In this document: positions 11,925 through 64,000 of the stretch, piece by piece
Layout: each line of letters opens with the position of its first letter
How positions within the stretch are numbered: the stretch's first letter is position 1
Source of the DNA: an uncultured Actinomycetota bacterium
GTDB lineage: Bacteria; Actinomycetota; Actinomycetes; UBA12327
NCBI GenBank assembly: GCA_963850215.1
Contig: CAWKKI010000011.1
Coordinates: 219,776-283,775 of the forward strand
DNA: 64,000 bases
Direction: 5' to 3'
The notes under the pieces: model-generated
Told to the model about the DNA's origin: nothing
The model's database searches: none
What the model saw: the letters and a program-made list of their open reading frames with translations, nothing else
Program-made: the position numbers and the translations under genes

Positions 11925-12012
11925 TCAACCGCCGAATCCTTCCTGCTCCACCCGCACGACGGCAGGTCGCGACACCGGGTCTCGACTGCCGAGCACAAGA
12001 AGGAGACAGTCA

Positions 12013-13032: not shown

Positions 13033-13075
13033 TCCTTCCCTCGCGCAATCCAAATAACAGAGAGAGAGAAAGCTC

Positions 13076-14638: not shown

Positions 14639-14667
14639 TTGGCCTAAGTGCGAGGTAGCTCCACACC

Positions 14668-14703
14668 GGGGGTGGGGCGGGTTCTCGGACCTGTCCCACC
14701 CCC
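14668..14703 (+). terminator. GC-rich stem-loop between the WxL-like and DUF916-like genes (possible intra-operon attenuator)
   Basis: GGGGGTGGG (14668-14676) pairs perfectly with CCCACCCCC (14695-14703) across an 18-nt loop. No U-tract follows. Confidence 0.35.
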
Positions 14704-14720
14704 ACCAAAAGCCCGGTGAC

Positions 14721-16717: not shown

Positions 16718-17946
16718 CCCCCGCAGTGAACATCTCCGACACGGCGAAGACCACTACCCGCACGACTGTGCGCCGGAGCAGGTCCGTGATGGCCGCTGGC
16801 ATCGTCTCGCTCGCCACGGCGATCGGCTTTGCCGGCGTTGCGTTGAACATGCCTGCCGCCTCGGCGGCTTCCGAGGGAGCACTGACAATCGCTCCCGCAA
16901 GCGGCACGGATACCTCATTGCTTACGGCGACGACTACAAGTACTTGTAGTGATCCGTCGGCTGACCACTTTTCAATCTCGATCTCGGGTAGTGGTTTCAC
17001 CGGTCAGGTCAATGTCGTCGGTACGTCCAGTCTCACCACGGTCACCTCGGGGAACGGCTATTCAGCTCCCATCCAGAACACGTTGGCCGTGATCGCTTCG
17101 CTCCAGTCGCCAGCAGTCGTCTACACCGGCGACTACGTCCTCGACTTCAAGTGCCGCAGTGCCATTAGCTCCACGAGTCTCGGCGACTTCACCGGAACGA
17201 TCCACTTCACCGACCCGCACACGTACACGTTCGTAGCACCAACGACGAGCCCTTCGACGTCGCCGTCAACGAGCCCCTCAACTAGCCCTTCGACGTCGCC
17301 GTCAACGAGCCCGTCAACAAGTCCTTCGACGAGCCCCTCAACCAGCCCGTCGACAAGTCCGTCGACGAGCCCCTCAACCAGCCCCTCAACCAGCCCATCG
17401 ACGTCGCCGTCCACGACCCCGTCCGACAGCACATCTGCGAGTGCAAGCCCCACCGACTCGACGAGTCAAATCACCTGTTCCGCGACCGATGACATGGGCA
17501 CACCGCTTGGCGACAACCCGACACTCGACCCGGGCCAGAACGTCAGCGTGACCGCCACGGGCTTTGCTGCGGCTGCCTCAGTTGATGTGACGGTGCATTC
17601 GACGCCGCAGGATCTCGGCACTGTTACAGCGGACTCCACGGGCACCGTCACTTACGCGTTCCTTGTGCCAACGACCCTCGAGGCGGGAGCGCACACTCTG
17701 GTGTTCACCTCGGGATCAACGACCGGGACGTATGCCTTTGTCGTCAGCACGACCGCGGCTACCACGGCGGCAGCCGACGGCGGTACGACCGATGGTGGGA
17801 CGACGGACACCGCTGGGTCGACGCTGCCTCACACCGGGGCTGATGTGGTCATCTACCTGCTTGTGGCTCTCATCCTGATGGTCACTGGAGTGGGTTTCCT
17901 CGCGTGGAGCGGTGGGCTCGTGACATCAAACGGACGGCACCGGTGA
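16714..17946 (+). CDS. LPXTG cell-wall-anchored protein: shared N-domain + (STSP)n linker + Ig-like domain + LPHTG sorting signal
   Basis: GTG 16714 forms a GTGA overlap, and GTG 16726 is an alternative start. It has a signal peptide (AASAAS) and an N-domain with GSGFTGQVNVVG and YVLDFKCR. The C-terminus is LPHTG + hydrophobic helix + GRHR. Confidence 0.8.
   Translation: MTPAVNISDTAKTTTRTTVRRSRSVMAAGIVSLATAIGFAGVALNMPAASAASEGALTIAPASGTDTSLLTATTTSTCSDPSADHFSISISGSGFTGQVNVVGTSSLTTVTSGNGYSAPIQNTLAVIASLQSPAVVYTGDYVLDFKCRSAISSTSLGDFTGTIHFTDPHTYTFVAPTTSPSTSPSTSPSTSPSTSPSTSPSTSPSTSPSTSPSTSPSTSPSTSPSTSPSTSPSTTPSDSTSASASPTDSTSQITCSATDDMGTPLGDNPTLDPGQNVSVTATGFAAAASVDVTVHSTPQDLGTVTADSTGTVTYAFLVPTTLEAGAHTLVFTSGSTTGTYAFVVSTTAATTAAADGGTTDGGTTDTAGSTLPHTGADVVIYLLVALILMVTGVGFLAWSGGLVTSNGRHR
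17245..17418 (+). repeat. Coding (Ser-Thr-Ser-Pro)n array of about 14 units of 12 nt with synonymous-codon variation
   Basis: The translation is TSPSTSPSTSP...STTPS. Ser is coded by AGC/TCG/TCA/AGT/TCC and Pro by CCT/CCG/CCC/CCA. Only short stretches are DNA-identical. Confidence 0.9.
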
Positions 17947-18947
17947 TCACGGTGCTTGAGCGCACGTTGGTAGCCATCGCTTCGGGGTCGCTTCTCGCCG
18001 GCGCCTTGGTGTTGCAGGCTGGGGCGGCCCACGCCGTTTCGGTCGGCAGTCTTACCGTTGCCCCAACCTCGGGCAGCGACGCGTCTCTCTTGACGTTGGC
18101 GACCGGAAGTACCTGCACGGATTCGTCTGCCACCTACGTCTCGGTTGCGATCAGCGGCTCCGGATTCGCTGCGGGTGGCACGAATGTTGTGGGCGCTGCC
18201 CAGATCAGTGACCTCACTCATTCGGCAACGGGGTATGTGATCCAGGTCAGCAACACGCTGGCCGCGATCGCGTCACTTCAGCATCCCGCGGTCACTTATG
18301 TCGGCGACTACACCTTCGACGTCAAATGTCGGTTGGCTCTGGACTTCACCAGCCTGGGCGACTTCACAGCAACGATCCACTTCAGCGATCCGCACACGTG
18401 GTCCGTGGTGAGCGGCACTGCGCCGCACTTCACCATCGCGGCGCACCTCACCGGAACCGCTCGTGTTGGCTACACCTCGGGTTGCTCGGCGTCGGTCACT
18501 GGCTCGACCAGCCTTCAATACGTATGGCTGCGCAACGGCGTCACCATCTCAGGCGCCACGCACTCCACCTACGTGGTGCAGCCGGCCGACAATGCCCACA
18601 CCTTGGCATGCGAGCTGATCGCCAAGAACGCTGCCGGTTCCACGACGAGCAAGGCCGCGGCCCGTTATGTCGAGCCCGGCTATCTGCACAACGTGGTGCA
18701 TCCGACTCTCTCCGGTCACGCCATCCACGGCTACACGTTGGCCTGCCGAGCGGGTGCCTGGTCACCGGCACCCAGCCATTACGCATATGGCTGGCTGCTC
18801 AACGGTGTTCACATCCGAGGCGCGGCGGCAAGCACGTTGAAGTTGGCGACCACCTACAAGGCGCACACGATCGCTTGTCAGGTCACTGCGTCAAAGACCG
18901 GATACCTCAGCGTCACAGTGCGAACGAGCGCGGTGAAGGTCAGCTGA
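17943..18947 (+). CDS. Secreted protein: shared N-domain + two Ig-like repeats, no anchor recognised
   Basis: ORF 17904..18947 was trimmed to GTG 17943 (GTGA overlap). It has a signal peptide (QAGAAHA) and an N-domain with GSGFAAGGTNVVG and YTFDVKCR. Two ~80-aa repeats follow the pattern G..L.C...W...P..YAYGWLLNG..I.GA...Y......H.IAC.V.A. Confidence 0.75.
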   Translation: MITVLERTLVAIASGSLLAGALVLQAGAAHAVSVGSLTVAPTSGSDASLLTLATGSTCTDSSATYVSVAISGSGFAAGGTNVVGAAQISDLTHSATGYVIQVSNTLAAIASLQHPAVTYVGDYTFDVKCRLALDFTSLGDFTATIHFSDPHTWSVVSGTAPHFTIAAHLTGTARVGYTSGCSASVTGSTSLQYVWLRNGVTISGATHSTYVVQPADNAHTLACELIAKNAAGSTTSKAAARYVEPGYLHNVVHPTLSGHAIHGYTLACRAGAWSPAPSHYAYGWLLNGVHIRGAAASTLKLATTYKAHTIACQVTASKTGYLSVTVRTSAVKVS

Positions 18948-18949
18948 CC

Positions 18950-20035
18950 GTGTCCCTTGACTCCGAGGCCGCTCTGGCCGTTGGTACTGAACCGGTAGCG
19001 CCGGTCGCCAACGGCCAGTCCGGTGCTGTGCCGTCCAACGGGACTCACGTAACAGAACTCGCGGCGCCCAACCCCGCGGAGATGGTCGACCTGCCGCACC
19101 CGGACCTCGGCACGCCGAGCACCGAGTTGCAGGTCGATGCCGACGATCATCTAGTCGATGACGACGACGAGGAGTCGACGGCCGCCCCACGCCGCGACGG
19201 GCTCTGGATCATGGGCGTCGCCCTGACCACACTCGGCGTCATCGTGCTCGGCTTTCTGGCTGCATTCCTGGTGATCGGCCCGATCAAGTACCACCGTGCG
19301 CAGACCGTGGAGTACGCGCAACTGCGCTACGAACTCGCGAACTCGATCGCGCCGGTCGGTCAAACCGACTACAACGGCAAGCTTCTGACCCCTGGCACAC
19401 CAGTGGCTCTGCTCAGCATCCCGGCCATCAAGCTGACGACGGTTGTGTCCGAGGGCACGACTGGCGAGATCCTGCAGAACGGGCCTGGACATCGGCGTGA
19501 CAGCGCGATGCCAGGGCAGCCCGGAGCCAGCGTCATCTATGCGCGTCGGCTCGGCTTCGGCGGTCCGTTCGGATCTCTGCCTTCGTTGAAGCCCGGTGAC
19601 CCGATCTACGTGACTACCGGACAAGGCGTCTCGACGTACACCGTTGCGGACGTGCGCTACGCCGGGGACAAAGAACCGTCGGTGCAGATCAATCACGGCT
19701 TGCTCAGTCTGGTTACCGCCGGCGGCTCGCGCTTCCTGCCCAACGGAGTTGTAGCCGTTGACGCGAATCTGACGTCGACACCGCAGCAGGCGCCCGGTGC
19801 CGTGATCGGCTCTAACGCCCTGAGCCGCTCGGAAGGCCCGATGCAGGGCGATCCGAGTGCTTGGGTCGGGCTCGTGCTCTGGGGTGAGCTACTCGTTGGC
19901 GCGACGGTCGCCATGGTGTGGGCGCGCAAGCGATGGGGGATATGGCAAGCCTGGATTGTTGGCGTTCCCGTAGTCGTTCTCCTGGGAGTTCTGGTTGCCA
20001 ACCAGATCACCACCTTGCTACCGAACATGCTGTGA
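18950..20035 (+). CDS. Sortase-fold homologue lacking the catalytic His, Cys and probably Arg (cysteine-free), with one N-terminal and two C-terminal TM helices
   Basis: ORF 18326..20035 was trimmed to GTG 18950, 2 nt after the previous stop. The blocks GPGHRRDSAMPGQPGASVIYARRLGFGGPFGSLPSLKPGDPIYV and LLSLVTAGG align by eye to the sortase GH-PG / IAGHR / GAPF / GD and TLxTC blocks. There is no Cys anywhere in the 361 aa. Confidence 0.75.
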   Translation: MSLDSEAALAVGTEPVAPVANGQSGAVPSNGTHVTELAAPNPAEMVDLPHPDLGTPSTELQVDADDHLVDDDDEESTAAPRRDGLWIMGVALTTLGVIVLGFLAAFLVIGPIKYHRAQTVEYAQLRYELANSIAPVGQTDYNGKLLTPGTPVALLSIPAIKLTTVVSEGTTGEILQNGPGHRRDSAMPGQPGASVIYARRLGFGGPFGSLPSLKPGDPIYVTTGQGVSTYTVADVRYAGDKEPSVQINHGLLSLVTAGGSRFLPNGVVAVDANLTSTPQQAPGAVIGSNALSRSEGPMQGDPSAWVGLVLWGELLVGATVAMVWARKRWGIWQAWIVGVPVVVLLGVLVANQITTLLPNML

Positions 20036-37341: not shown

Positions 37342-39378
37342 TCAGTCGTGCTTGCGCGCCTGTTCGTCCAGCGCCGCGAGATAAGCGTTGTACGCCTCGA
37401 CCTCGTCGTCCACCCGTCCCGATGCCTCCGCTCGGGCGACTCGTCGGTCGAAGCGCTTCGACTCTCGTTCGTCGGCCCGCATCCACTGCCACACGAGCGC
37501 GCCCACGACCAAGATGATCGGCAGTTCACCCATGCCCCACGAGATGCCGCCGCCGGTGTGCTGGTCGGCGAGCAGATCAACGAGATAGGGCCGGTTCAGG
37601 CTCGCGAAATAGCTCGACGCGAGCACCGTGGTCGATTGCATGATCGCCAGGCTGAAGAAGGCGTGCAGCGCGATCACGCCAATCAGGATGGCTAGGCGCG
37701 CCAAATAGGGAGGGCGTCGTGGGCCGGGGTCAACCCCGATGAGCGTCCAGAAGAAGAAGCAGCCGATCACAACGAAGCCCACCTCCATATAGAGGTGGCC
37801 CCAGTGGCTGCCCATCAGGTGCGGAAATAGTCCGCTGAAATAGAGCCCGTAGATACCGCCGACGAACACCGCCGCGGCCACTAGCGGGTTTGCAAGTATG
37901 GCGACCGGTCGACTGTGAACGAAGGCCAGCAGCCACTCGCGGGGACCCCGCTCGCCGTCGTGGCGAGTCGGAATCGTGCGCAACGCCAATGTGACCGGCG
38001 CACCGAGCACGAGGCAGATCGGCACGAGCATGTTCAGTGTCATGTGGTCGACCATGTGCGCGCTGAACAGCACGTGGGCATAAGTCGCAAGCCCCCCGCT
38101 CGTTGCATAAATCATGATGAGCAGGCCGATGTACCAGGCGACGGAGCGACCAACGGGCCATGCCGCCCCACGTCGATGCATGATCTGCAGGCCAATCCCG
38201 TAGAGCACCCCGAGCACGATCGCCGCGGCGAGGAAGAAGCCGTCGACATGCCACTGGGTCAGGAAATTCGCCAACGTTGGCGCTGGCGGAAGGTCGAAGC
38301 CGAGCAGATTGCGCACTGGCGAGAGATCGTCGATCGAGATCTGCACCGGGGTGGGGGAGCGGCTTAGCGCGACCGCGAGTGCGACCGTGCACGCCATCAC
38401 GGTGAGTTCGACCGCCGCGATTTGCATGAAGACCGTGAGTTCGCGCTTCTTCACGAGTGCGGGCACTGCGCGCTTGCGTTGCTGCCAGCCGAACCATCCA
38501 AGGATGACGAGCGCGGCAAACTTGCAGTCCACCAGCACCCCGTAGCGCGAAGTCCACAGCGCTGAGACTGACCCGATCCGGATCGCCGCGTTGATCACCC
38601 CGCTGATGCCCACGGCAACGAAGCACCACAGTGCAAGGCGACTGAACCGCGGCACGGCCACTGTCATCGCGCCTGCACGTGCCCGCGCGACGATCGCCAA
38701 TGCGAAGAGGCCACCAACCCAGAGGCTGACCGCGCCGACGTGAATCATCAGGCTCGAGGTCGCGAGGTCGTGGCTGCTCGACGCGGACGAGTGGCCGGTG
38801 AGCGTCGGGGGAAGCAGCGCGGCCAGGGCAAGAAGCAGAGCGAGCGCCGCTTCGCTCTGGGTCGTGACCAACCGCACCAACGCGGCGAGCAGGAAGGCCA
38901 GTGCGGCCTGCACGAGCAATGCCCGACCTTGCGGGATCTGCAGCACGTAACTTCGGATCTGCTCAGGCGTGAACGACTGAGACAAGGGTTCCCCGAGGAT
39001 GTCCGACAGTGTCAGTGCGATCTCGAACAGCGACGCGAAGCCCCAGACGACCGCGGTGGGAACGACCGCACGAATACATCGTTTGCCCGGGTCTGACAGT
39101 GAATCCCGATGCGGGGGCAAAAGGAACCCGGCCGCGAGCAAGAGCCCGACGCATGCGATGCCTGTGCCATCGGCAATCACGCGCGTGATCGGCAACGCCC
39201 ACTCGGTGAACAGCCCCGCGTACGGCAGTCCTGGCGCGACCGGCGATGGGTTGCCGCCGCCAATCAGCATCGCGACCACGAACGTCAGGAACACCGCAAG
39301 CGCAGTGACGATGATCCATCGCCGCAGTGCACTTCGTTGACTCTCCGTCATCCGCGGGGCTGCGACCGATGTACTCAC
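37342..39378 (-). CDS. Fused CopD copper-resistance / CtaG-like cytochrome c oxidase assembly membrane protein
   Basis: 678 aa polytopic protein. The N half is CopD-like and the C half is caa3-CtaG-like. It overlaps copC by 4 nt. Confidence 0.85.
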   Translation of the reverse strand: MSTSVAAPRMTESQRSALRRWIIVTALAVFLTFVVAMLIGGGNPSPVAPGLPYAGLFTEWALPITRVIADGTGIACVGLLLAAGFLLPPHRDSLSDPGKRCIRAVVPTAVVWGFASLFEIALTLSDILGEPLSQSFTPEQIRSYVLQIPQGRALLVQAALAFLLAALVRLVTTQSEAALALLLALAALLPPTLTGHSSASSSHDLATSSLMIHVGAVSLWVGGLFALAIVARARAGAMTVAVPRFSRLALWCFVAVGISGVINAAIRIGSVSALWTSRYGVLVDCKFAALVILGWFGWQQRKRAVPALVKKRELTVFMQIAAVELTVMACTVALAVALSRSPTPVQISIDDLSPVRNLLGFDLPPAPTLANFLTQWHVDGFFLAAAIVLGVLYGIGLQIMHRRGAAWPVGRSVAWYIGLLIMIYATSGGLATYAHVLFSAHMVDHMTLNMLVPICLVLGAPVTLALRTIPTRHDGERGPREWLLAFVHSRPVAILANPLVAAAVFVGGIYGLYFSGLFPHLMGSHWGHLYMEVGFVVIGCFFFWTLIGVDPGPRRPPYLARLAILIGVIALHAFFSLAIMQSTTVLASSYFASLNRPYLVDLLADQHTGGGISWGMGELPIILVVGALVWQWMRADERESKRFDRRVARAEASGRVDDEVEAYNAYLAALDEQARKHD

Positions 39379-39932
39379 GCGTCACCGCCACGTCGCCGAG
39401 TGCGCATGCCCAATCCGATCCAGCTCAGCAAGGCGAGACCGACGATGACCACACCCGCAACGATCCATCCGCCACTGTGCGATGTGGTCGTCGCCCCTCC
39501 CGCAGACGCCTGCCCCACGGCCGTACTCATCGGCACGGGGGTCGCGCCTGGCGGCAGATAGGTGAAGTGCAGCACTCGACTCACCGGGTGCCCATCTGCG
39601 GAGACGATTCGGTATTCGACTGTGTACTCGCCGGCCACGGTGAGCGGCGAGAGTGCTTGGGTGGCCGTGTTATTGAGAATGACCGGTCCACCGGTATCGA
39701 CTCGGGACGCGTTCGGAGTCTCGACGATCACCTTGTCGCCGACGTTTTGAATGTTCTCGTTGAAGTAGAGAACGACTTGTGTCGGTGCACTAGCCACGGT
39801 CGAACCGTCAGCGGGCGTCATCTTGATGAGTTGACTGTGCGCGGAGGCGGGCCCGGCAACGGCGACTACAAGAGTCGCCGCGCCGAGCATGCAAGCCGCT
39901 AGCGCAACGAGTGCTCTCCTAGTTCGAATCAT
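39375..39932 (-). CDS. CopC-domain copper-binding protein with a C-terminal TM anchor
   Basis: The signal peptide is followed by the AHSQLIKMTPADGSTV N-terminus (His1 motif). Confidence 0.85.
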   Translation of the reverse strand: MIRTRRALVALAACMLGAATLVVAVAGPASAHSQLIKMTPADGSTVASAPTQVVLYFNENIQNVGDKVIVETPNASRVDTGGPVILNNTATQALSPLTVAGEYTVEYRIVSADGHPVSRVLHFTYLPPGATPVPMSTAVGQASAGGATTTSHSGGWIVAGVVIVGLALLSWIGLGMRTRRRGGDA

Positions 39933-40642
39933 GAGATCGGCGTTTGTGGTCGTCTGATCAGCGACACCGCCAGCGCGAGTGCTGCTAGCACCAGCGCGAT
40001 GATGGCGAGCACGATCGCCCAGGGGGACGTCGAGCCGTTGGTCGAAGGGCCACTCGTCGTCGCGCTAGTCAGATGTAGGACCGGAGTCGGGTTCTCGGGC
40101 TCGTCACCGGAGGCTGGATAGGGCTCGTCCCACTTGACGACCTGGCCGTCGCTATAAGTCTGAGTTGCAGTGAACACGACCGTGTCGGACTTGGGGAGGT
40201 TCCCCACAACGACCGTGAAGAAGTCAACCAAGTCCGGCGCAATGCCATCGGCCTTTGTATTTGCCGTCCAGGTGACTGATGAAATCGCCTTGTTCACCGT
40301 GAAGTCATCCGCGGTGATCGTGTGCGTGAGCTGCTGAGTCGTGGTCGTAATCGTCCACCCCGGCTTTACTGCTGGTTGCACGGCCGCGAATGGGGTTGTC
40401 ATCGGCATTGCGATAGCGAGCTTGGTGGTCGCTGCACCAGTAGTTGATTCGTTGGGCACCCGGAAGACCAGGGTGCCAAATCCGCCTTGCACCGCATCGG
40501 TGGAGTTGACCACCACGTGAGCCGAGACAGCGGTTGCCCCGAACACAATTGCTGCGATCGCAAGTAGTGATGAAACCGCCAGTCGCCGGCAAAAGCGCGC
40601 GTGCATGAGGCCTCGTAATCGTTCGGTGACGGATGGGCGCAA
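39929..40642 (-). CDS. YcnI-family (DUF1775) copper-binding protein
   Basis: The signal peptide is followed by HVVVNSTDAVQGGFGTLVFRVPNES. It has a C-terminal TM anchor. Confidence 0.8.
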   Translation of the reverse strand: MRPSVTERLRGLMHARFCRRLAVSSLLAIAAIVFGATAVSAHVVVNSTDAVQGGFGTLVFRVPNESTTGAATTKLAIAMPMTTPFAAVQPAVKPGWTITTTTQQLTHTITADDFTVNKAISSVTWTANTKADGIAPDLVDFFTVVVGNLPKSDTVVFTATQTYSDGQVVKWDEPYPASGDEPENPTPVLHLTSATTSGPSTNGSTSPWAIVLAIIALVLAALALAVSLIRRPQTPIS

Positions 40643-41271: not shown

Positions 41272-42033
41272 GTGGCGGAGAACCGATCGGTGCTGTCGCG
41301 AAAGGCGCGCCACCCTGATCGCTCGTGGGCGTATGGCCACCTTGCCGACAACGCGGTCGACCTATGGCTGCCCACTGCCGCGATCGATGTCGAACACCAA
41401 TACCCGCTCGTCGTGATGATTCACGGGGGATTCTGGCGACCGGAGTACGACCGATCGCATGTCGCGCCGATGTGTGATGCCTTCGCCCAACTTGGCTACG
41501 CGGCCGCCGCGATCGAGTACAGCCGCACCCCGGGATCGCCGGACGTGACAGTTAACGATGTCGCCGCGGCACTTCGTTGGATCGATGTCTGCGACGAGTT
41601 CGCGGGCATTCGTGCGGCGGGCGGAGTCGTGGTCGGCCACTCGGCAGGCGGTCATCTTGCGCTGTGGGCGGCGTCGACCATTGACGTGGGTTGGCGGCGC
41701 GCGACCATAGCGCTCGCGCCGCTGGCCGACTTGGTCGCGGCCGAGGAGGAGCGTCTAGATGGAGACGGCGTCGTCGCCTTCCTTGGCGCGTCTGCGAGCG
41801 AACGTCCAGACCTCGATCCGCTCCAATTGCCGCACCCCAGTCAGCCTGTGCATCTCATCCATGGCACGAACGACGAGATCGTGCCCATCGCGCAGTCCGA
41901 GGCCTATGCCGCGCCGCGTTCGTCGGCTTTGCTGCACGCATTAGTGGACGTGGGGCACTTTGATCTCATCGATCCGCTCAGCGACGCGTGGCGCACCGTT
42001 GCCGCCGTGGTGACTTCGGCGCTGAGCACCTGA
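41272..42033 (+). CDS. Alpha/beta hydrolase (esterase/formamidase-like)
   Basis: It has the oxyanion motif HGGFW, the nucleophile elbow GHSAGGHLA, and a C-terminal H in VDVGHFDLI. Confidence 0.75.
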   Translation: MAENRSVLSRKARHPDRSWAYGHLADNAVDLWLPTAAIDVEHQYPLVVMIHGGFWRPEYDRSHVAPMCDAFAQLGYAAAAIEYSRTPGSPDVTVNDVAAALRWIDVCDEFAGIRAAGGVVVGHSAGGHLALWAASTIDVGWRRATIALAPLADLVAAEEERLDGDGVVAFLGASASERPDLDPLQLPHPSQPVHLIHGTNDEIVPIAQSEAYAAPRSSALLHALVDVGHFDLIDPLSDAWRTVAAVVTSALST

Positions 42034-42526
42034 CTGGACATACTTCGAAGTGACACAACGAATCAGGAGAGATGGATGTCGGAGGGCGGCCCTCAGCGTG
42101 CTGGGCGTGCTCCTTGCTCGGCTTGCTCGGCGGTACCGTCCGCGTGCTCCCGAGGCCGTTGGCTACGCCGCTGCTGCGGCGGCGGCTGGGCATACCGTCC
42201 CGCCCTCGCCCACACGCGTGGGGGTCGCACGGAGCGCCTGAAGGTCGCCTGGGCTGCCAGTTCCGCAGCGAGATCGTGGTTGCCGCTCTCAATCGCAGAG
42301 TTGACCTGGGCGATGTACCAGAGTTCTCTCGTCTCCATGCCATGAGTGTCGGCAACCAACGTTTCAGTTCCGTTGCTTCGCCATGACAGTCGCGATAAAT
42401 GACGACGAATCCCGGGCGACGGTCGCGCTCGGTCCGTCCCGCCCAACCCAGGTTCCAGGCTTATCGCGCGGAAGCAGCCCTGCATGGACGAGGTTCTCGA
42501 AGCGGTGATTAACGGTGGGGTTCTGG

Positions 42527-43606
42527 CTAACGCTCCGCGTTAGCGCGTTCGACGAATGCTGCGTCGACCTCGGTGACGCCCTCGGCCTTAGCCTTCTTGA
42601 CGATGCCCCTGAGTGCCTTCTTCAGGAACGGGCGAGGGACACCGGTCAGTACTGCGGCAGCGCTAGGCGTGAAGGTGACTGACGAGTCGAGGGCGTTCGC
42701 GTCGTCGAGGATTGACTGCTGCTTCTTCGACGTAAGTACGCTCGTTGATCGCGAGGGAGTATCGGTGTCGGCGGGCTGGCTCTGTCCCTTCGTCTCGAAC
42801 CGGGCCATCACTGCGCGATCCATCCCGAACTCGGCCATCAGCTCTTCCATGTGAGCAAGAGTCACGACGGTGGCTCCTTTGCCCTTCGCATAGGTCTCGA
42901 CCTGCTCGGTCACCATCGGCCGGACTGGCGGCGGGATCTGCATGAGGCCCTGCATGGCGTCTTCATCCCAGTCAAGTGTGGTCGCGATCCTGGCGGCGAG
43001 ATGACCCCGCGGGGTCTCCTTGAGCGTGTGGTGCACGACATCTGAGGTGCGCGCGAAGTAGTACTCCATGCGGTCCTGGTCGCCGAGGCCGATCGGCAGG
43101 TTCATCGCGGCGATCCGCTCCGAGCGGTCCATCTCCTCGAGGCCTTCGTCCATCGTGATGGCGACGATGTTCGCGAAGACGATGCCGCTGCTTTGGGGCA
43201 GTCGCACGATCTCGTCGACGGTGCACTCCATGACCTGGGGGCACTGCTCGAGGGTCGGCGGCTTCACCTTGAGTGAGGGGGTCGTGGTGAAGCGCGTGTG
43301 CTCAAGTTCGTTGACGCCCTCTGGATAGAAACGCGCGGACTCCATCACGTCCTCGAGGTAGTCCGACGACGGACAGTTGATGACGAACTCGCCCGTCGCC
43401 TCGATGTTCTTGAATGTGTGCGAGTCCTGCCGGAAACCGACCATGATTCGTGGCCGCTTGTGCATTACGTCGAACTGCATGATGTGGGAGTAGGGCGCGG
43501 CGTTGAGCCGCCCTTCGGCGTCAAGAGTGGTCACTACCGTCACGAGCTTCGGGAACAGCCAGGCGTCGGAGTACCAGAACGGCCTGATCGGGACTTCCTT
43601 CTTCAT
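42527..43606 (-). CDS. Flavin-reductase-like domain fused to two PCP_red-like (protochlorophyllide-reductase C-terminal type) modules
   Basis: 359 aa. The N-terminal ~200 aa are flavin-reductase-like (VTTLDAEGRLNAAPYS). Two later modules fit the W..eA...l..iP.fvR......E..A...G pattern: LDWDEDAMQGLMQIPPPVRPMVTEQVETYAKGKGATVVT and FTPSAAAVLTGVPRPFLKKALRGIVKKAKAEGVTEV. Confidence 0.8.
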   Translation of the reverse strand: MKKEVPIRPFWYSDAWLFPKLVTVVTTLDAEGRLNAAPYSHIMQFDVMHKRPRIMVGFRQDSHTFKNIEATGEFVINCPSSDYLEDVMESARFYPEGVNELEHTRFTTTPSLKVKPPTLEQCPQVMECTVDEIVRLPQSSGIVFANIVAITMDEGLEEMDRSERIAAMNLPIGLGDQDRMEYYFARTSDVVHHTLKETPRGHLAARIATTLDWDEDAMQGLMQIPPPVRPMVTEQVETYAKGKGATVVTLAHMEELMAEFGMDRAVMARFETKGQSQPADTDTPSRSTSVLTSKKQQSILDDANALDSSVTFTPSAAAVLTGVPRPFLKKALRGIVKKAKAEGVTEVDAAFVERANAER

Positions 43607-45267
43607 CGCGACGACGCGCCGTCCGTGACCTGTCTAGTGAGCAGTGCCTTCATGTCCTCGGCGGCCTGTGCTCCGACGATCCGGTCGAGGAAACCCCAGA
43701 CCGGGTTGGTCCGTGGCGAGAACATCGCCGCACGATTGCGCCGGTCACGCTCCGCTAGGTCCTGCCACTTGGCATCGTTCGCGGCCGCTACCGGCAGCCC
43801 GCTGACAACGAGATGGATCCACTGGTCCAGGTACGCGTCGACGACGCCCGACAGCGACTTCAGTTCGTTGGGCATCACAATCGCAGCGACCATCCACGGC
43901 GATCGAACCGACCACTGCAGCGGACCCAAGGACGGGACCGGCATCACGCCCGGCTGGGCGAGTGCTTCGGCCCGCACCTCGGTGATCGGTCCGTAGACGG
44001 TCTCGGCGTAGTCAAGGCTGGCACCAAGGTCGATGCGGGGAACCAGGTCGAGGCCGAAATGAAATGTCCCGTCGGTATTCGGTGAGATCGCGGTGTCGAG
44101 GAAGAGATGGGGGATCGCGCTGGACGTCGGTGTGAACGCGTACACCTGATGGGTGTCCATGCCGAAGTCGTCGATCGAGAGCGCGCTGTAGACGACGCGC
44201 ACACCGTCATCGCGGGTGAAGACCCTGAACTCGCCGATGCGTCGACCCTCAAGGGGGCCACCTGCGCCCGTCAGCGGAAGCGCAGCGTCACCGTCGGGAC
44301 CGGGTACCTCGACCAGACCCAGAGACTTCGTGATTCGTGCCAGCGCGGAGGTCACGATCTCTCGGCCGGTGCGGTCGATCTCGGTCAACGCGCTGGGTGG
44401 CGCGGTGTCGCCGGGCACGGGCATCGTCTCGGCCTGTGTGTGGGTCAGGCGAAACCCCGTGCTCAAGAGCGCATCCACGGAAACAGGCTTCGACGGGGCC
44501 TTGAGCTCGTTGCGGTAGGTCAGGGGAGGAAGCCCGTCGAGCTCACAGAGCGCGTCGAAGTACGGCTGCATGGCCGGCGGAATCTCTTCATGGGTCAGGT
44601 TGTAGGTGCCCACCACCCGACGATCGATGGCGAACTTGACCGCGTCGACGACATCGAGCATGTGCACCCGGTAGAAGAGGGCATCTTCGAAGAACGGAAC
44701 CGAGCCGCCCAGCACTTGGTGGGCCATCCGCAGCTTATCCATGATCGGCGGGTCATCGCCTCCGGTGACGTCGGCGAGGCGCAGCACCGCGAGCCGGTCC
44801 TCGGCGGCGGCCCGGTAGGCCCGTTCGGCGGCCTGGAACATCGCTGGACTCGGGTCGTCGTCGGTCGTCAGCGGTGACGACTCGTCGATGACGTCGAGGT
44901 GGTTCGCCGCGTCGCCGTAGACCGACAGTGACGACAACATCACGAGGTAAGGCTCGCCCGGCACGCTCGATACCGACTCCGCGGTGTCCAGCAGAACCTG
45001 GCGGTAGGTGCGCTGCCGCTGCTCAATCGTCATCGCCTGCGCCGCTGCGGGCCCGGCTGCGACGACGATCGCATCCGCACCCAACGCTGCCTGGTGGACC
45101 TTCTCGGTCTCCGACCCCGTGAGTACGGCGACCTCGTCGCACACATCGCGCAGCAACTCGACCTTCCCAGGCGTGGTCGTCGTGCCCACGACGACATGGC
45201 CCTCGGCCCGGAGCTGCCTCGCCAGTTCCTTTCCGACCAGACCGCATCCGACGATGAGTACGCGCAT
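43603..45267 (-). CDS. NAD(P)-binding Rossmann (SDR/epimerase-like) domain fused to a ferredoxin-dependent-bilin-reductase-like (FDBR/RCCR-like) domain
   Basis: 554 aa with N-terminus MRVLIVGCGLVGKELARQL. The C-terminal ~260 aa carry MDTHQVYAFTPTSSAIPHLFLDTAISPNTDGTFHFGLDLVP and RDRRNRAAMFSPRTNPVWGFLDRIVG. These resemble the PcyA-type core and C-terminal helices. A 4-nt overlap with the downstream gene is present. Confidence 0.75.
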   Translation of the reverse strand: MRVLIVGCGLVGKELARQLRAEGHVVVGTTTTPGKVELLRDVCDEVAVLTGSETEKVHQAALGADAIVVAAGPAAAQAMTIEQRQRTYRQVLLDTAESVSSVPGEPYLVMLSSLSVYGDAANHLDVIDESSPLTTDDDPSPAMFQAAERAYRAAAEDRLAVLRLADVTGGDDPPIMDKLRMAHQVLGGSVPFFEDALFYRVHMLDVVDAVKFAIDRRVVGTYNLTHEEIPPAMQPYFDALCELDGLPPLTYRNELKAPSKPVSVDALLSTGFRLTHTQAETMPVPGDTAPPSALTEIDRTGREIVTSALARITKSLGLVEVPGPDGDAALPLTGAGGPLEGRRIGEFRVFTRDDGVRVVYSALSIDDFGMDTHQVYAFTPTSSAIPHLFLDTAISPNTDGTFHFGLDLVPRIDLGASLDYAETVYGPITEVRAEALAQPGVMPVPSLGPLQWSVRSPWMVAAIVMPNELKSLSGVVDAYLDQWIHLVVSGLPVAAANDAKWQDLAERDRRNRAAMFSPRTNPVWGFLDRIVGAQAAEDMKALLTRQVTDGASSR

Positions 45268-45312
45268 GTCACACTCCTGAGAACGAGAGGGATAACGATA
45301 TGGTCAAGGGTT

Positions 45313-45792
45313 ATGACCACTTTCGTCAAGGGGCCTGACCAGTCAGCGGCGGCGGCAGAGCGGGAGATGCTCGCGCTGCCTGATCATCTGCTTCGTTGGC
45401 TTGAGGCTGCACAACGACGTGTCGCGGGCGAGCTAGACGCCGCTTCAGACGAGATTCTTCGGCGGGTTCCTCAGCGACGGTTGCGCATCCTTCAGCTCGT
45501 GCCGCCCGAGGGAGCGCGCCAGAAGGACCTCGCCGAACGGGCGCTCGTGACGAAGCAGGCCATCGCCGAACTCGTCGATGCGCTGGAGTCCGACGGCCTG
45601 GTCGGCCGCACCCCGGACCCGCAGGACGGCCGCGCATGGGTGGTCACGAGGTCCGCTCGCGGGCGGCGTGTGAGCGAGAGCCTGGACGCAGCGATGAGAA
45701 TCGTTGAAGGCGATCTGGCGCGCTCCATCGGCGCCGAGCGGTACAGGGCATTCAAGGAGGTTCTCCGGCAGATCGGCGAAGGTCAGATCTGA
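45313..45792 (+). CDS. MarR-family transcriptional regulator (divergent from the FDBR-like operon)
   Basis: ORF 45094..45792 was trimmed to ATG 45313. The winged-helix block is QKDLAERALVTKQAIAELVDALESDGLVGRTPDPQDGRA. The inverted repeat ATAAC-N13-GTTAT spans 45292-45314. Confidence 0.85.
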   Translation: MTTFVKGPDQSAAAAEREMLALPDHLLRWLEAAQRRVAGELDAASDEILRRVPQRRLRILQLVPPEGARQKDLAERALVTKQAIAELVDALESDGLVGRTPDPQDGRAWVVTRSARGRRVSESLDAAMRIVEGDLARSIGAERYRAFKEVLRQIGEGQI

Positions 45793-45884
45793 CTGCGCTC
45801 TCTCTCCCGGGGGGTCGTGGGGCCCTGTCATCTCGGGTCCTTCGCATCTGCTGGGGCTGGCGCCGCCGTCGCAGAGTTTGTCTC

Positions 45885-46349
45885 GTGACGACGTCGGAGA
45901 ATTTGAATGCCACCATCCTTGACCAGAGCCGATGCATGTCGCTGCTGCGCTCGGTCGACGTCGGTCATCTTGCGGTTATCGTCGAGGACGCTCCGGAGAT
46001 CTTCCCGATCAACTACGTGGTAGATGGCGCAACCATCGTCTTTCGGACTGCGACAGGGACGAAGTTGGCTGCAATCGTCGAAGGCTCGAAGGTCGCGTTC
46101 GAAGTTGATGGACGTGACGAGGCCGGGATGGTGTGGAGCGTGGTCGTGAAAGGCAGTGGCCGCGCGGTCAACCACATAGACGACGTGATGGAGACGCTCG
46201 GACTGCCGCTCTACCCCTGGAATGCGTCGCCGAAGCCGATCTTCGTCCGCATCATCCCCGCCGCGATTAGCGGGAGAGAGTTTGCCCTCGCCGATCCCTC
46301 GACTTGGGCATCAAGGTTCGACGTGAACCGTCGGGCGGCTTCCGAATAA
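45885..46349 (+). CDS. Pyridoxamine 5'-phosphate oxidase family (Pyridox_ox_2) protein
   Basis: It carries LLRSVDVGHLAVIVEDAPEIFPINYVVDGATIVFRTATGTK and WSVVVKGSGRAV. Confidence 0.8.
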   Translation: MTTSENLNATILDQSRCMSLLRSVDVGHLAVIVEDAPEIFPINYVVDGATIVFRTATGTKLAAIVEGSKVAFEVDGRDEAGMVWSVVVKGSGRAVNHIDDVMETLGLPLYPWNASPKPIFVRIIPAAISGREFALADPSTWASRFDVNRRAASE

Positions 46350-46356
46350 TAGGCCG

Positions 46357-46392
46357 CCCGCTCTGCTCGCCCCTCCCGCTCTGCTCGCCCCT
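46357..46392 (+). repeat. Perfect 18-bp tandem duplication (CCCGCTCTGCTCGCCCCT x2)
   Basis: The copies at 46357-46374 and 46375-46392 are identical. They lie in the convergent intergenic region. Confidence 0.9.
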
Positions 46393-46513
46393 GAGGTGTC
46401 GCTGAACCGAACTCGGCGACCTTGGTCGCGCCGCTGGTTCGAGACCAGTTGGCGCACCGCATTGGGCTCCCAGACATGGTCGAAGTCCGTCTAGCGAGTT
46501 GCGACCTGACAAC

Positions 46514-47533
46514 TCACTTCGCCCCCGGGGGCGAACCTGCTTTGCCGTTCTCCCGGTAGTAATCCCGCCAGATGAGCCGATGGACGGGGACCCACCGCGG
46601 TATCGAACGCAGGCCCGGGATGAACGGGAGCAGTAGGAGCACCAGCGTCAGCAGCGCCATGATGTAGAAGATGATCGCGTCGGCATCGCTGGTCAGCGTG
46701 GCGCTGAATCCCGTTGAGCCATCGGCGGCATTGAAGACCGGCAGTTGGTACCAGGTTGAGTACCCCCAAAGCCAGGCTTGCCCCGGCCAACTCCCGGTCT
46801 CGTTCATCATTCCCCAGGTGTTGCCCTGGAGGTTCGCGGCCGTAGCCGCGTCGTCGAGATAGGAACCGTCGCCCATGAACAGGATCTGCCGCGTGTAGTC
46901 GGTCTGGTAGAAGCCGCCGTTGGCCATGAGGATGCCGTCGTAGGAACCAGAACGCGCCATCGCGGTGAGACCGCTCGCGAGTGCGGGAACGGGACCGTAG
47001 TTGCCGGGTGCGACCTTGGTGAGGTCGATGTCGCCCGCGCTGTCGGCCGTTGCGGCGATTGCGTCCGAGTATGCGCTCGCCCATGCGATGCCTTGCTCGG
47101 ATGAGGCGCTTTGCCACCGCGCCAGCGCCGCCGTCACAGAAGCCGGCTGCTGCTGGGAGGAGAGCGGCTTGATGACGAAGTCGTTGGCCGAGTCGACCGG
47201 GATCCGGACGCCCATCCATTTCTGGGGATTCAGTCCCGCAACCGAGATGCCGTCGCTGTTGGAGTTGTAGGGCGGACCGTACGACGCCGAGTCGGATGTG
47301 CCGGCGAGCTCAGTCACGGTCGTCGCGTAGAAGTCGTTCGGCGCCGTTGTTGCCCAGCCTTTGAAGGTGAGCGGCGGATCGTCCGGCGAACTGAAGACCG
47401 CGGCGAGCACGACGGTGAGCATGCCCACGACGACGAGCGCGATCACGCCCTCCTTGACGATGTCGTATCGACGCCAGGGACCCTGCCACGGGCCTGAGTC
47501 AACGTCGTGCGAACGTGCGGTCCGGGCCGTCAT
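46514..47533 (-). CDS. Hypothetical bitopic membrane protein with a large extracytoplasmic domain, coupled to cytochrome b
   Basis: 339 aa. It has an N-terminal TM helix (VIALVVVGMLTVVLAAVF) and a C-terminal TM helix (IIFYIMALLTLVLLLLPFIPGL). Its start ATG 47533 overlaps the stop of the upstream cytochrome b gene (ATGA at 47530-47533). No family was recognised. Confidence 0.65.
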   Translation of the reverse strand: MTARTARSHDVDSGPWQGPWRRYDIVKEGVIALVVVGMLTVVLAAVFSSPDDPPLTFKGWATTAPNDFYATTVTELAGTSDSASYGPPYNSNSDGISVAGLNPQKWMGVRIPVDSANDFVIKPLSSQQQPASVTAALARWQSASSEQGIAWASAYSDAIAATADSAGDIDLTKVAPGNYGPVPALASGLTAMARSGSYDGILMANGGFYQTDYTRQILFMGDGSYLDDAATAANLQGNTWGMMNETGSWPGQAWLWGYSTWYQLPVFNAADGSTGFSATLTSDADAIIFYIMALLTLVLLLLPFIPGLRSIPRWVPVHRLIWRDYYRENGKAGSPPGAK

Positions 47534-48207
47534 GACGACTCCTCAACCTTCTCCGTGCCCCGCCTTGGTCCGGAGTCGATGGGCGGCACCACACCGTGCT
47601 TACGCACGAGCAAGATGTGCGCCACGACGATCCCGCCGACGACTAGCGGCAGCAAGAAGACGTGAACGAGCAGCATCTGACCCAGATTGGCCACGTTGAA
47701 CCAGGCTCCGATCCCGACGGCATTCAGGCCGTCCTTGGCCTCGAACGAGATCCACTGCGAGTCGAAGTTGGTCTGCGTGAGGTAGCCAGTGAATGCGGCT
47801 GCGAGGGACACCATGAACGCGATGACGCCCGTGATCCAGGTCATTGCACGGTGACCGCGCCACGCGGCCATCCAGAACTTCCCCCACAGGTGAACGACCA
47901 TGAATATGAAGAACAGTTGCACGCTCCAAAAGTGCAGGCTGTTGAAAAAGTGGCCGGTCGATGACGTGTGGTACCACGACGGCCCTTCGAAAGTGAGCAC
48001 GACGCCCGAGGCAATGATCATGAGGAGCGCAGCAATGGTGAGCACACCGAAGACGTAAATCCACGACGACACGTATGCGGGTTGGCGATCGGGCAGCAAC
48101 TTGTCCGGCGGCAACGTCGCCATCCACCGGCGGCGGAGCCCCCCCGTCCACGAGCGGTCCGCGGCCTCGGAGTGGTCCGTGGGTGGCACTGGCACCGTCG
48201 CAGTCAC
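47530..48207 (-). CDS. Cytochrome b N-terminal-domain (b6-like, four-helix, di-haem) protein
   Basis: ORF 47530..48567 was trimmed to GTG 48207, with GGAGGAGG upstream. The His pairs are LHFWSVQLFFIFMVVH and HVFLLPLVVGGIVVAH. Confidence 0.85.
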   Translation of the reverse strand: MTATVPVPPTDHSEAADRSWTGGLRRRWMATLPPDKLLPDRQPAYVSSWIYVFGVLTIAALLMIIASGVVLTFEGPSWYHTSSTGHFFNSLHFWSVQLFFIFMVVHLWGKFWMAAWRGHRAMTWITGVIAFMVSLAAAFTGYLTQTNFDSQWISFEAKDGLNAVGIGAWFNVANLGQMLLVHVFLLPLVVGGIVVAHILLVRKHGVVPPIDSGPRRGTEKVEESS

Positions 48208-48680
48208 GCCCCCTCCTCCTCGTCGTGTTCGCCTTTGGGGAAGGGAAGAACGAGCGCTAGCGCGAACAGAACCACCATGATTGTGATGACGACGAGGTTC
48301 GGGACCGAGATTGCGACCCAACCCCGCGAGATGTAGTCGGGCAGTGTGATCGAGCAGCCCTGATGCGACGAGGTTGGGCATGTACGCCTCCCGTGGACGA
48401 GCGCGACGACATACGCGTGACCGAGTCTTCGCGCCCGTCAGTCGGACCGCACGGGCCCTTCGACCTGTCCTGTCCGGGACCTTTCCTGACACGAACCCGG
48501 GCCGTGCCGGGCCTTGCAGTGCATGGCACGCCCTCGTCGGGAGGATCGCTGAGGAGCACACGCGCACAGGCGAGACACGAAAACCGGTCGCGAGCCGACC
48601 GATGACCCTGATCGCCCCGATGAGGGGGCAACTAGGGCAGTCGATCTGAGGTCAACGCTCTGACCTGCATAGAAACTCGG

Positions 48681-62956: not shown

Positions 62957-63433
62957 ATGCGCGTTCACGTGGGCGGCGATCACGCGGCATTCGACCTCAA
63001 GCTCGTCATCGTTGCGTACCTGCGCGCGCAGGGGCACGAGGTTGTTGACCATGGTGCGCACGTCGATGATCCGCAGGACGACTACCCGGCGTTCTGCCTA
63101 CGCACCGGTGAAGCAGTCGCCAACGATCCCGGCAGCCTCGGCATCGTCCTTGGTGGTTCGGGCAACGGTGAGCAGATCGCAGCGAACAAGGTGAAGGGTG
63201 TCCGCGCGGCGCTTGCTTGGAGCCTCGACACCGCGCGACTCGCGCGCGAGCACAACAACGCCAACATCGTCGGCATCGGCGCGCGCCAGCATGAGGAGGC
63301 GGTTGCGTTGCAAATCGTTCAGGCGTTTGTCACCGAGCCGTTCAGCGAGGGCGACCGACACAAACGCCGGATCGCGATGATCAGCCAGTACGAGGCCGAC
63401 GGCACGCTGCCGCCCCTGCCCGCCGGCGACTGA
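62957..63433 (+). CDS. rpiB: Ribose-5-phosphate isomerase B
   Basis: 158 aa. It carries MRVHVGGDHAAFDLK, LGGSGNGEQIAANKVKGVRAA and NANIVGIGAR. Confidence 0.9.
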   Translation: MRVHVGGDHAAFDLKLVIVAYLRAQGHEVVDHGAHVDDPQDDYPAFCLRTGEAVANDPGSLGIVLGGSGNGEQIAANKVKGVRAALAWSLDTARLAREHNNANIVGIGARQHEEAVALQIVQAFVTEPFSEGDRHKRRIAMISQYEADGTLPPLPAGD

Positions 63434-63456: not shown

Positions 63457-64000
63457 TTACGACAAGCGCACGGGTTCGCTGATCGTGAGCCGGATGTGGT
63501 TGGCCGACTCGGCCCCGATCAGCCCCTCCAGCAGGGACCAGACCTCGTCACTCGACGGGTCGAAGAGCGTCGAACGATGGTGCGCATCGCGGGCAACCAG
63601 ACCGTCGGGATCGAGGCTGACGGGCAAGGCAGCGCCTTGCGCAAGTTCGAACCAGTGCTCCAGGTAGGCATACATCGCATCGGCCAGGTCGGGCAGTTGG
63701 GCGCTGGGCGCGGTCGCGCCGAGGATCCACGGCGAGCACAGTGCCTTGAGCCGCGGGGGTAGCTGGATTGCCCTAGCGCCATCGAGGGCAAGTGCCTGAT
63801 TCAACGTGTCGGTGAGTGGCGCATAGACGCTGTCGAGGTACTTCGTCTCGGTGACCAGGTCAACGCGCGGCATCAGATCGACATTGATGAAGACCCCCTC
63901 GGGGATGTTCGCGACATCGCTCGTGAAGTGCGGCACCGGCGTCGCTGCGTCGGCGAAGACGTGCGTCATGGTGGAGTCGATGCCGATCGCGGGGATAGAC
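63457..64000 (-). CDS. Second bilin-reductase-like (FDBR/RCCR-like) paralogue, with its 5' end outside the window
   Basis: The frame stays open upstream of the listed ATG 63969 (..SIPAIGIDSTMTHVFADAATPVPHFTSDV). The sequence is collinear with the C-terminal domain of 43603..45267. For example, RDAHHRSTLFDPSSDEVWSLLEGLIG matches RDRRNRAAMFSPRTNPVWGFLDRIVG. Confidence 0.65.
   Translation of the reverse strand, partial: SIPAIGIDSTMTHVFADAATPVPHFTSDVANIPEGVFINVDLMPRVDLVTETKYLDSVYAPLTDTLNQALALDGARAIQLPPRLKALCSPWILGATAPSAQLPDLADAMYAYLEHWFELAQGAALPVSLDPDGLVARDAHHRSTLFDPSSDEVWSLLEGLIGAESANHIRLTISEPVRLS

Follow-up and report, generated by a model that had tools for sequence, protein, structure and literature searches.

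We analysed a 64-kb stretch of DNA, the window, from an uncultured Actinomycetota bacterium (64,000 nucleotides of contig CAWKKI010000011.1, assembly GCA_963850215.1; G+C 62–67%), whose housekeeping genes are actinobacterial (an Rv2466c-like mycothiol nitroreductase, CtaG/CopD and PepN). Our subject is a pair of genes on its minus strand: P2, a fusion of an NAD(P)-binding Rossmann domain to a domain with the fold of RCCR and the ferredoxin-dependent bilin reductases (FDBRs), and P1, a flavin reductase extended by modules of the PCP_red type. A gene for a MarR-family regulator runs divergently from them. A preliminary description, made from the sequence alone, had listed the three open reading frames (ORFs) at 42527–43606 (−), 43603–45267 (−) and 45313–45792 (+); all of them exist, and the features that we now recognize are these:

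43603–45267, minus strand: P2, 554 amino acids, an atypical extended short-chain dehydrogenase/reductase (SDR) NAD(P)-binding domain plus an RCCR/FDBR-fold domain (ORF, AlphaFold2 (AF2) model, homologs)
44413–45267, minus strand: P2 N-terminal domain, residues 1 to about 285, Rossmann fold with a GCGLVG motif and no YxxxK (Pfam, PDB, Foldseek)
43606–44382, minus strand: P2 C-terminal domain, residues about 296 to 554, RCCR/FDBR fold, 'Asn-type' (AF2, Foldseek, family profile)
42527–43606, minus strand: P1, 359 amino acids, a split-barrel flavin reductase of the flavin mononucleotide (FMN) type plus two PCP_red-like helical modules (Pfam, PDB)
43133–43555, minus strand: P1 Flavin_Reduct domain, residues 18–158 (PF01613, 1e-21, 77.9 bits against a cutoff of 27)
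42842–42970, minus strand: P1 PCP_red module 1, residues 213–255 (PF08369, 41.7 bits against a cutoff of 32.5, scanned alone)
42542–42670, minus strand: P1 PCP_red-like module 2, residues about 313–355 (PF08369, 15.7 bits, E=0.015)
45367–45792, plus strand: putative MarR-family repressor, divergent from P2, revised start (Pfam MarR PF01047 / MarR_2 PF12802)
45301–45319, no strand: predicted operator palindrome 1, TGGTCA-N7-TGACCA (motif scan, junction alignment)
45323–45341, no strand: predicted operator palindrome 2, TCGTCA-N7-TGACCA, 22 bp from palindrome 1 (motif scan, junction alignment)

The C-terminal domain of P2, about 260 amino acids, has no match as a single sequence in Pfam (including PF06405 and PF05996, even at E ≤ 1), in NCBIfam or among PDB sequences, and its homology was therefore checkable only through structure and family profiles. 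An AF2 model built from an alignment of 34 homologs was confident (predicted local distance difference test score, pLDDT, 92.8; predicted template-modelling score, pTM, 0.90), and the 45 best Foldseek matches in the PDB all belonged to the FDBR superfamily (RCCR, PebA, PebB, PcyA, HY2 and PebS), with a probability of 1.00. Their E-values ran from 2e-9 for the best match, RCCR, to 8e-5, and their template-modelling (TM) scores lay mostly between 0.55 and 0.76; they included two subunits of the Ycf2-FtsHi motor that have the FDBR fold (8xqw_H, 8xks_P), and the weak tail behind the 45 was coproporphyrinogen oxidase. An exhaustive phmmer search with the domain yielded 193 representative relatives, mainly stand-alone proteins of 240–260 amino acids, and a family profile of 93 sequences from this set matched AtRCCR (1e-12) and tomato HY2 (SlHY2; 1.7e-7). 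Taken singly, 48 of the 93 touched PF06405, as against 12 that touched PF05996. These profile matches and family counts establish the domain as a homolog of the FDBR/RCCR superfamily, closest to RCCR. The preliminary description had likened it to PcyA, HY2 and RCCR, a likeness upheld by both kinds of search: the fold is that of the FDBR/RCCR superfamily and not an unrelated one.

Conserved in the domain are P386, H387, D391, D407, R411, D413, S456, P457, W458, Y479, R507, D508, R512, N521 and W524. The two peptides to which attention had first been drawn coincide with conserved parts, residues 373–410 with pocket and core strands (H373...P386-H387...D391...D407) and residues 507–532 with the C-terminal helices (R507-D508...R512...N521...W524). 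D391 aligns with residue 111 of the RCCR chain, which is Glu154 (the offset being fixed by the F218V entries), and an acidic residue, D or E, occupies this position in 87 of 92 relatives. Sugishima et al. reportedly assigned a catalytic role to Glu154; a literature search on RCCR Glu154 and Asp291 found nothing useful. His387 and Asp407 are reminiscent of PcyA His88 and Asp105 and may be their counterparts; PcyA was absent from the profile-versus-PDB alignment.

The N-terminal domain is recognizable at the sequence level, as residues 1–250 match Pfam Epimerase PF01370 (9e-11, 42 bits against a cutoff of 20.9) and NAD_binding_10 PF13460 (7.5e-6); its PDB sequence matches are 3gpi and 3ius, and its best Foldseek structures GalE and 3ius. 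Across 44 homologs, the GCGLVG motif and residues G7, G9, G12, T29–T32 and K35 are invariant. The Ser-Tyr-x3-Lys set is absent from P2, where the segment S140-P141-A142-M143-F144-Q145-A146-A147-E148 contains no Tyr/Lys pair, and likewise from the related 3gpi; the domain is therefore an atypical SDR. Homologs of P2 form 61 clusters, nearly all of full-length fusions, which public annotation calls only 'epimerase' ('NAD-dependent epimerase/dehydratase'). The confident full-length AF2 model (pLDDT 91.1, pTM 0.81), with its ordered linker, suggests that P2 is a fixed two-domain unit. No PDB entry spans both halves (Foldseek, query-based TM score, TMq, at most 0.41).

Position 521 divides the family. 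It is Asn in all 33 aligned Rossmann fusions, whereas 78 of 92 stand-alone relatives have Asp. In the profile alignment the Asn521 column meets SlHY2 Asp-263, the helix-side proton donor (PMC11879140), and Gln374 of P2 meets HY2 Asp-123; P2 has no helix-side proton-donor Asp at this place, which in RCCR falls in the Asp291 region. We fetched 80 metagenomic loci of the RCCR-like family (L numbers below) and read their neighbourhoods by targeted tblastn; the locus scan used a 13-sequence alignment, the 93-sequence alignment being too diverse for that purpose. The Asn-type domain always had an NAD(P)-binding domain, fused to it or encoded next to it, whereas the Asp-type stood alone; of the relatives counted as stand-alone, three carry Asn (P0065, P0066 and P0117). 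Besides the N-terminal fusion seen in P2, the stand-alone Asn-type protein P0065 (L022) is preceded by a separate Epimerase gene of 292 amino acids, which overlaps it by 4 nt and is 51% identical to the N-domain of P2; P0066 (L104), also stand-alone and Asn-type, is followed after 27 nt by an NmrA/NAD_binding_10 gene; and P0117 (826 amino acids) has one Asp-type and one Asn-type RCCR-like domain and then NAD_binding_10, a C-terminal fusion in the opposite order. These four independent arrangements therefore constitute a Rosetta-stone signal of functional coupling. As judged from gene architecture, the Asn-type domain is predicted to be functionally coupled to an NAD(P)-binding atypical SDR, with the coupling under selection, and the weight that the preliminary description gave to the nucleotide-domain fusion is justified by this recurrence.

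Some of these loci offer further observations on gene structure. The split P2 of L022 (5395–7804) adjoins DUF2499 and DUF3593 genes, families associated with cyanobacteria and plastids, and the same locus has another RCCR-like paralog at 2075–2797 (−). In P0150 (L023, 3635–5563), a protein of 642 amino acids on a contig of 41% G+C beside BrxL, Rieske+VanA_C domains are fused to an RCCR-like C-terminus, and P0195 is an RCCR-like + Rieske protein of 1189 amino acids. In L012–L016 (match 8001–9640) tblastn found the fusion gene broken into two or three frames, by frameshift sequencing errors or as pseudogenes; L014 is labelled Bifidobacterium breve and is probably a mis-binned contig.

A second RCCR-like gene lies at the end of the window:

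63457–64000, minus strand: RCCR-like paralog of the Asp-type (SSDEVW), its N-terminus truncated at the window end (tblastn, Pfam)

By tblastn this paralog is 36% identical to P0065 and 32% to the Asp-type gene of L106 (see below), and it matches Pfam RCC_reductase at 0.0022. L012, L013, L022, L027 and L028 likewise have Asp-type paralogs in the vicinity of their fusions, and that of the window probably belongs to the same pathway as P2. Its upstream side, where relatives carry a Rieske oxygenase gene, is beyond the window end.

Rieske genes are indeed frequent neighbours of the stand-alone relatives. Among the non-fusion loci with at least 1 kb of upstream sequence, 43 of 55 have a Rieske oxygenase gene directly upstream on the same strand, and these Rieske-linked relatives lie within hydrolase/SDR clusters; the operon of L039, for example, reads DUF3891, two genes without assignment, alpha/beta-hydrolase, Rieske+VanA_C, RCCR-like, one further gene without assignment, SDR. 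The fusion joins such a set in L106, a 6-kb actinobacterial contig (72% G+C) with four genes on one strand and overlapping junctions. They encode an Asn-type fusion (73% identity to P2), a P1 with two modules (81% identity to ours), a stand-alone paralog of the Asp-type (49% identity to the Rieske-linked RCCR-like gene of L039) and a Rieske+VanA_C oxygenase (42.5% identity to the L039 Rieske protein). Because of this operon and the Asp-type paralogs near fusions, the Asn-type fusion is predicted to be an additional enzyme in the pathway of the Rieske and Asp-type pair, not a replacement. Rieske adjacency in the relatives and the L106 operon also place the predicted pathway link at ring opening by a Rieske (PAO-like) enzyme and not at haem oxygenase and biliverdin. 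That the Rieske partner is the equivalent of PAO, and hence that the substrate is chlorophyll-derived, is plausible.

P1 begins within the end of P2. The 4-nt overlap first described was confirmed as an ATGA stop/start at 43603–43606, which predicts translational coupling of P1 to P2. The preliminary reading of P1 as a flavin reductase with two PCP_red modules stands for the Flavin_Reduct domain, with the FMN-binding protein 1eje as PDB match (2e-20), and for module 1; module 2 is divergent and falls below the PF08369 cutoff, with a match that spans the whole profile despite its low score. The nitrogenase-like core of BchB is absent from P1, which scores 33 bits against a cutoff of 490 for NCBIfam DPOR_BchB (TIGR01278), only the C-terminal module matching. 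The Flavin_Reduct+PCP_red architecture marks an uncharacterised family with at least 589 matches, most of them about 275 amino acids long with one PCP_red module and 61–70% identical to P1 over its first 75% or so. Such identity is unusually high across phyla (P0219–P0328, from Rhodospirillaceae and Gammaproteobacteria metagenome-assembled genomes (MAGs), share 61–70% with the first 275 residues of P1) and suggests horizontal transfer of P1, followed by gain of the extra C-terminal module.

The two-module form of about 360 amino acids comprises only a handful of sequences, which adjoin P2 fusions (L017, L018 and L106). In L001, L010, L024, L025, L026, L029 and L030 the gene that comes after the fusion encodes a different protein, weakly split-barrel in character, whose C-terminus, in the contigs that reach it (L001, L010, L024, L025 and L030), is 47–57% identical to module 2 and weakly PCP_red-like. 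Given this identity, and its absence from the 275-residue family, module 2 is a feature that all P2-adjacent partners, from two lineages, share. By analogy with BchB, whose C-terminal domain sits at the protochlorophyllide site, we infer that module 2 may be a P2-specific docking or capping element.

The divergent gene does encode a winged-helix MarR protein, as first proposed, but the start at 45313 is not retained. Homolog alignments begin at residue 21–25 of the ORF opened there, and because homologs start at about residue 21 and palindrome 2 lies inside that ORF, the start is more likely the ATG at 45367 (141 amino acids). Apart from the window, ten loci have a MarR gene adjoining the fusion (L001, L006, L008, L009, L010, L017, L018, L027, L028 and L029). 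When the MarR-P2 junctions of the window and eight loci were aligned, the 19-bp palindrome TnGTCA-N7-TGACnA was present in 9 of 9, as two copies 22 bp apart in eight and as one copy in L006; in all, its conservation at MarR-P2 junctions extends to 10 loci. The 64-kb window contains 2 matches to TNGTCA-N7-TGACNA, both at 45301–45341, against 0.11 expected by chance, and among 103 fetched loci the motif occurs almost only at MarR-fusion junctions. This conserved tandem palindrome is the predicted MarR operator. The inverted repeat ATAAC-N13-GTTAT at 45292–45314, which the preliminary description had proposed in this role, is present and overlaps palindrome 1, but its arms are mutated (ATGGC/GCTAT) in the closest relatives, L017 and L018; we rejected it for this lack of conservation. 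Single palindrome copies lie beside the second RCCR-like paralog in L012 (1925–1943) and L013 (2432–2450), two loci in which we detected no MarR gene beside the fusion. A scan of 42300–46500 for sigma-70 promoters and terminators found nothing.

The explanation that we consider the best overall, and hold tentatively with a confidence somewhat short of even, is that P2 works as a reductase of two domains on an opened (linear) tetrapyrrole catabolite, together with P1, the Asp-type paralog, a Rieske oxygenase and MarR. The Rieske (PAO-like) oxygenase would open the macrocycle, and the Asp-type RCCR-like enzyme would carry out one reduction. The linear tetrapyrrole would then be bound in the Asn-type pocket of P2, which keeps the His/Asp/Arg set of the bacterial RCCR-like family, with Asn521 in place of the helix-side proton-donor Asp, and would be reduced there at another position. 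P2 would be permanently coupled to its NAD(P)(H)-binding atypical SDR domain instead of to a soluble ferredoxin, with reducing equivalents passing from NAD(P)H to the tetrapyrrole by direct hydride transfer or by way of the flavin in P1, an auxiliary redox partner of the FMN type that might dock on or cap P2 with its module 2. P2 and P1, alongside the Asp-type paralog and the Rieske enzyme, would thereby provide two sequential reductions in the manner of PebA/PebB. MarR would repress P2-P1 through the two tandem palindromes until a ligand, presumably a pigment catabolite, releases it. Read in this way, the genes suggest an undescribed and probably ferredoxin-independent bacterial route for reducing opened tetrapyrrole pigments. 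The more far-reaching proposal is that NAD(P)H, and not ferredoxin, drives the enzymes that they encode (directly or via P1 with its pocket-capping module), which would be the first of the FDBR/RCCR fold to work in this way and would catalyse a second, hitherto unknown reduction step in a bacterial chlorophyll-catabolite (phyllobilin-type) pathway widespread in uncultured soil and freshwater Actinomycetota; this we regard as doubtful.

Several observations weigh against a linear-tetrapyrrole reductase of this kind. Asn521 replaces the very residue that is regarded as the proton donor in HY2 (PMC11879140), and the SDR domain, having no Tyr-x3-Lys pair, may not assure hydride transfer. A Rieske gene is linked to the fusion in one locus only, L106, and none was found in the window by tblastn with three Rieske queries (a weak match at 63080–63310 proved to lie inside the RpiB gene). 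The Rieske partners of the family match VanA_C and have NdmA, SxtT and DdmC as nearest solved relatives. As to P1, the flavin reductase/PCP_red partner of the preliminary description does recur directly downstream of the fusion, but not universally: a P1-like gene adjoins about 10 of the 23 fusion loci with downstream sequence, which makes it recurrent and not obligatory in cis. The single-module family of about 275 residues, moreover, sits in unrelated contexts, including proteobacterial MAGs.

Three other explanations have to be set beside it. The preliminary description had favoured haem-derived biliverdin, and a ferredoxin-independent bilin reductase acting downstream of haem oxygenase would accord with the presence of PcyA, PebA, PebB and HY2 among the top structural matches and of HY2 among the profile matches, with the invariant His387 and Asp407 on the central sheet of the C-domain, with an ABM-fold gene near the fusion in L001 and with a chemistry well established for Rossmann enzymes (BVR, BLVRB), which reduce biliverdin at the expense of NAD(P)H. 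We consider it improbable, and do not keep biliverdin as the substrate, given that the nearest characterised relative is RCCR and not a biliverdin-reducing FDBR, and that the recurrent pathway partner, operonic with the family and with the fusion itself in L106, is a Rieske+VanA_C oxygenase. A Pfam survey of the 43 larger ORFs of the 64-kb window revealed no haem oxygenase, and no photosynthesis or Rieske gene either; related loci were not scanned for haem oxygenase. The described pre-PcyA lineages go with haem oxygenases and globins (PMC10151467), neither of which was seen here. The Rieske partners also lend themselves to a pathway in which the RCCR fold was recruited for a non-tetrapyrrole aromatic or heterocyclic substrate: they resemble N-/O-demethylases and similar monooxygenases (NdmA, DdmC, SxtT), their best NCBIfam match is a sterol monooxygenase, and their clusters hold generic hydrolase and SDR genes. 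Plant PAO, however, is itself a member of this broad Rieske family, the pocket has conserved acidic, His and Arg residues, and the PCP_red modules of P1 are otherwise known from a tetrapyrrole enzyme. All characterised members of the fold (RCCR, the FDBRs and, distantly, coproporphyrinogen oxidase) bind a tetrapyrrole (PMC10151467). The preprint that proposes prokaryotic PAO/RCCR chlorophyll catabolism via structural homologs (Aliyu et al. 2026, 10.64898/2026.03.19.712979) leaves room for a different substrate, its in vivo test having covered only PPH/CLH mutants and not the RCCR homolog; on balance we find such a substrate unlikely.

A catalytic role could also be denied to P2 altogether, making it a pigment-binding or redox-sensing protein in which the SDR domain senses NAD(P)H, in the way of NmrA/HSCARG, and the RCCR-like domain carries a ligand or forms a scaffold. 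The missing YxxxK, the change of the helix-side Asp to Asn521 and the apparently structural FDBR-fold subunits of the Ycf2-FtsHi motor speak for such a role. Against these stand the strong conservation of the remaining polar pocket residues, the translational coupling to a flavin reductase, the operon shared with oxygenase and reductase genes and the genuine hydride transfer that some atypical SDRs, BLVRB among them, catalyse, and a non-catalytic P2 appears very unlikely to us. The two-domain reductase for an opened tetrapyrrole stays our preferred explanation.

Among known systems, P2 most resembles plant RCCR/ACD2 (PDB 2zxk, 3aga), an enzyme that detoxifies a chlorophyll breakdown product. 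The two share the fold, the best structural and profile matches, the acidic residue at the Glu154 position, an 'xLDLxP' strand and an R-D...R helix motif, and the RCCR-PAO pairing of plants is like the Rieske linkage of P2 relatives. They differ in that identity is about 16%, that P2 has the Rossmann fusion and falls below the PF06405 threshold, that 'PH' stands in P2 for RCCR 'PN' and Asn/Arg where the RCCR Asp291 region aligns, and that P2 belongs to a non-photosynthetic actinobacterium and probably uses a donor other than ferredoxin. The FDBRs (PcyA, PebA/PebB, PebS and HY2) likewise share the fold and, in HY2, the profile match, but lack the NAD(P)-binding domain; HY2 has Asp-263 and Asp-123 where P2 carries Asn521 and Gln374. 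PebA/PebB offer a precedent for paralogs acting in pairs, and pre-PcyA one for heterotrophic hosts (PMC10151467, PMC13446030). P2, with no haem oxygenase or globin neighbours seen, lies outside the pre-1/2/3 lineages as described and nearer the RCCR 'outgroup', sequences through which RCCR-like proteins of heterotrophic bacteria were already known (PMC10151467). BVR-A and BLVRB, the latter an atypical SDR of the NAD_binding_10 type, resemble P2 in using a Rossmann domain to deliver hydride to a linear tetrapyrrole or a flavin. BLVRB is also without YxxxK. Unlike P2, they hold the bilin on their Rossmann domain and are without a domain of the FDBR fold; they show no specific sequence similarity to P2, both being absent from its PDB sequence matches. 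P1 shares a bona fide PF08369 module with BchB/ChlB of the dark-operative protochlorophyllide oxidoreductase (DPOR), without their nitrogenase-like core, and a bona fide PF01613 domain, resembling 1eje, with HpaC/MTH152-type flavin reductases; it departs from both in its second module, which is confined to P2-adjacent proteins.

The clusters of the preprint, in which Actinomycetota are the largest contributor of RCCR-type genomes (10.64898/2026.03.19.712979), fit the Asp-type stand-alone relatives with their upstream Rieske+VanA_C and hydrolase genes; fusions, epimerase/SDR domains and flavin reductases, which set P2/P1 apart, are not mentioned there. The literature that we searched makes no mention of the Rossmann-coupled Asn-type lineage, its flavin-reductase/PCP_red partner or its MarR operator, and searches on PF08369/PCP_red outside DPOR and on NADPH/SDR-fused bilin reductases found nothing useful; the earlier remark that no characterised system has this composition agrees with this. 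What defines the FDBR/RCCR superfamily mechanistically is a radical chemistry that needs no cofactor and is driven by ferredoxin. In P2 the presence of a fused NAD(P) domain argues for a different electron donor, and if our explanation is right, a lineage wired to an NAD(P) domain, with an Asp-to-Asn change and a flavoprotein partner, would add a new mode of electron input to this fold. It would also provide concrete genes for the barely explored question of how heterotrophic bacteria get rid of opened tetrapyrroles, whether phototoxic ones derived from chlorophyll or others. The RCCR-like domain is invisible to current annotation, and surveys based on sequence consequently pass over P2-type genes; simple markers for finding and regulating such systems could be had in the Asn/Asp signature and the operator motif.

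Several other genes lie near P2 and P1. An adjacent alpha/beta-hydrolase gene (41272–42033) was rejected as linked to P2, as it does not recur outside the closest relatives, and so, for the same reason, was a Pyridox_ox_2 split-barrel gene at 45885–46349 (+; PDB 6eci, 1e-26), which lies 93 nt downstream of MarR and is kept beside it only in L017 and L018. The copper-handling cluster at 37342–40642 (−), which encodes a DUF1775 (YcnI-like) protein, CopC and a 678-residue CopD + Caa3_CtaG fusion, was considered as part of the P2-P1 system and rejected as apparently unrelated. At 46514–48567 (−) lie genes for a cytochrome b-like membrane protein (345 amino acids as listed, 225 as called in relatives) and a conserved 339-residue protein without a Pfam family, both syntenic with the MarR/P2/P1 block in L017 and L018. 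In L001 (8527–9736) a separate 276-residue PF06405 RCC_reductase-family gene, which lies 1 kb beyond the downstream end of the fusion and is read from the other strand, is followed by the weak ABM-fold gene mentioned above; ABM, whose homologs occur also in L070 and L101, is the fold of the IsdG/MhuD haem oxygenases. Farther away, large secreted or surface-type genes at 9435–20035 (+), among them an 829-residue protein without a Pfam family, Big_3_5, WxLIP_PGBD and a sortase-domain protein, resemble a cell-surface or pilus-like cluster.

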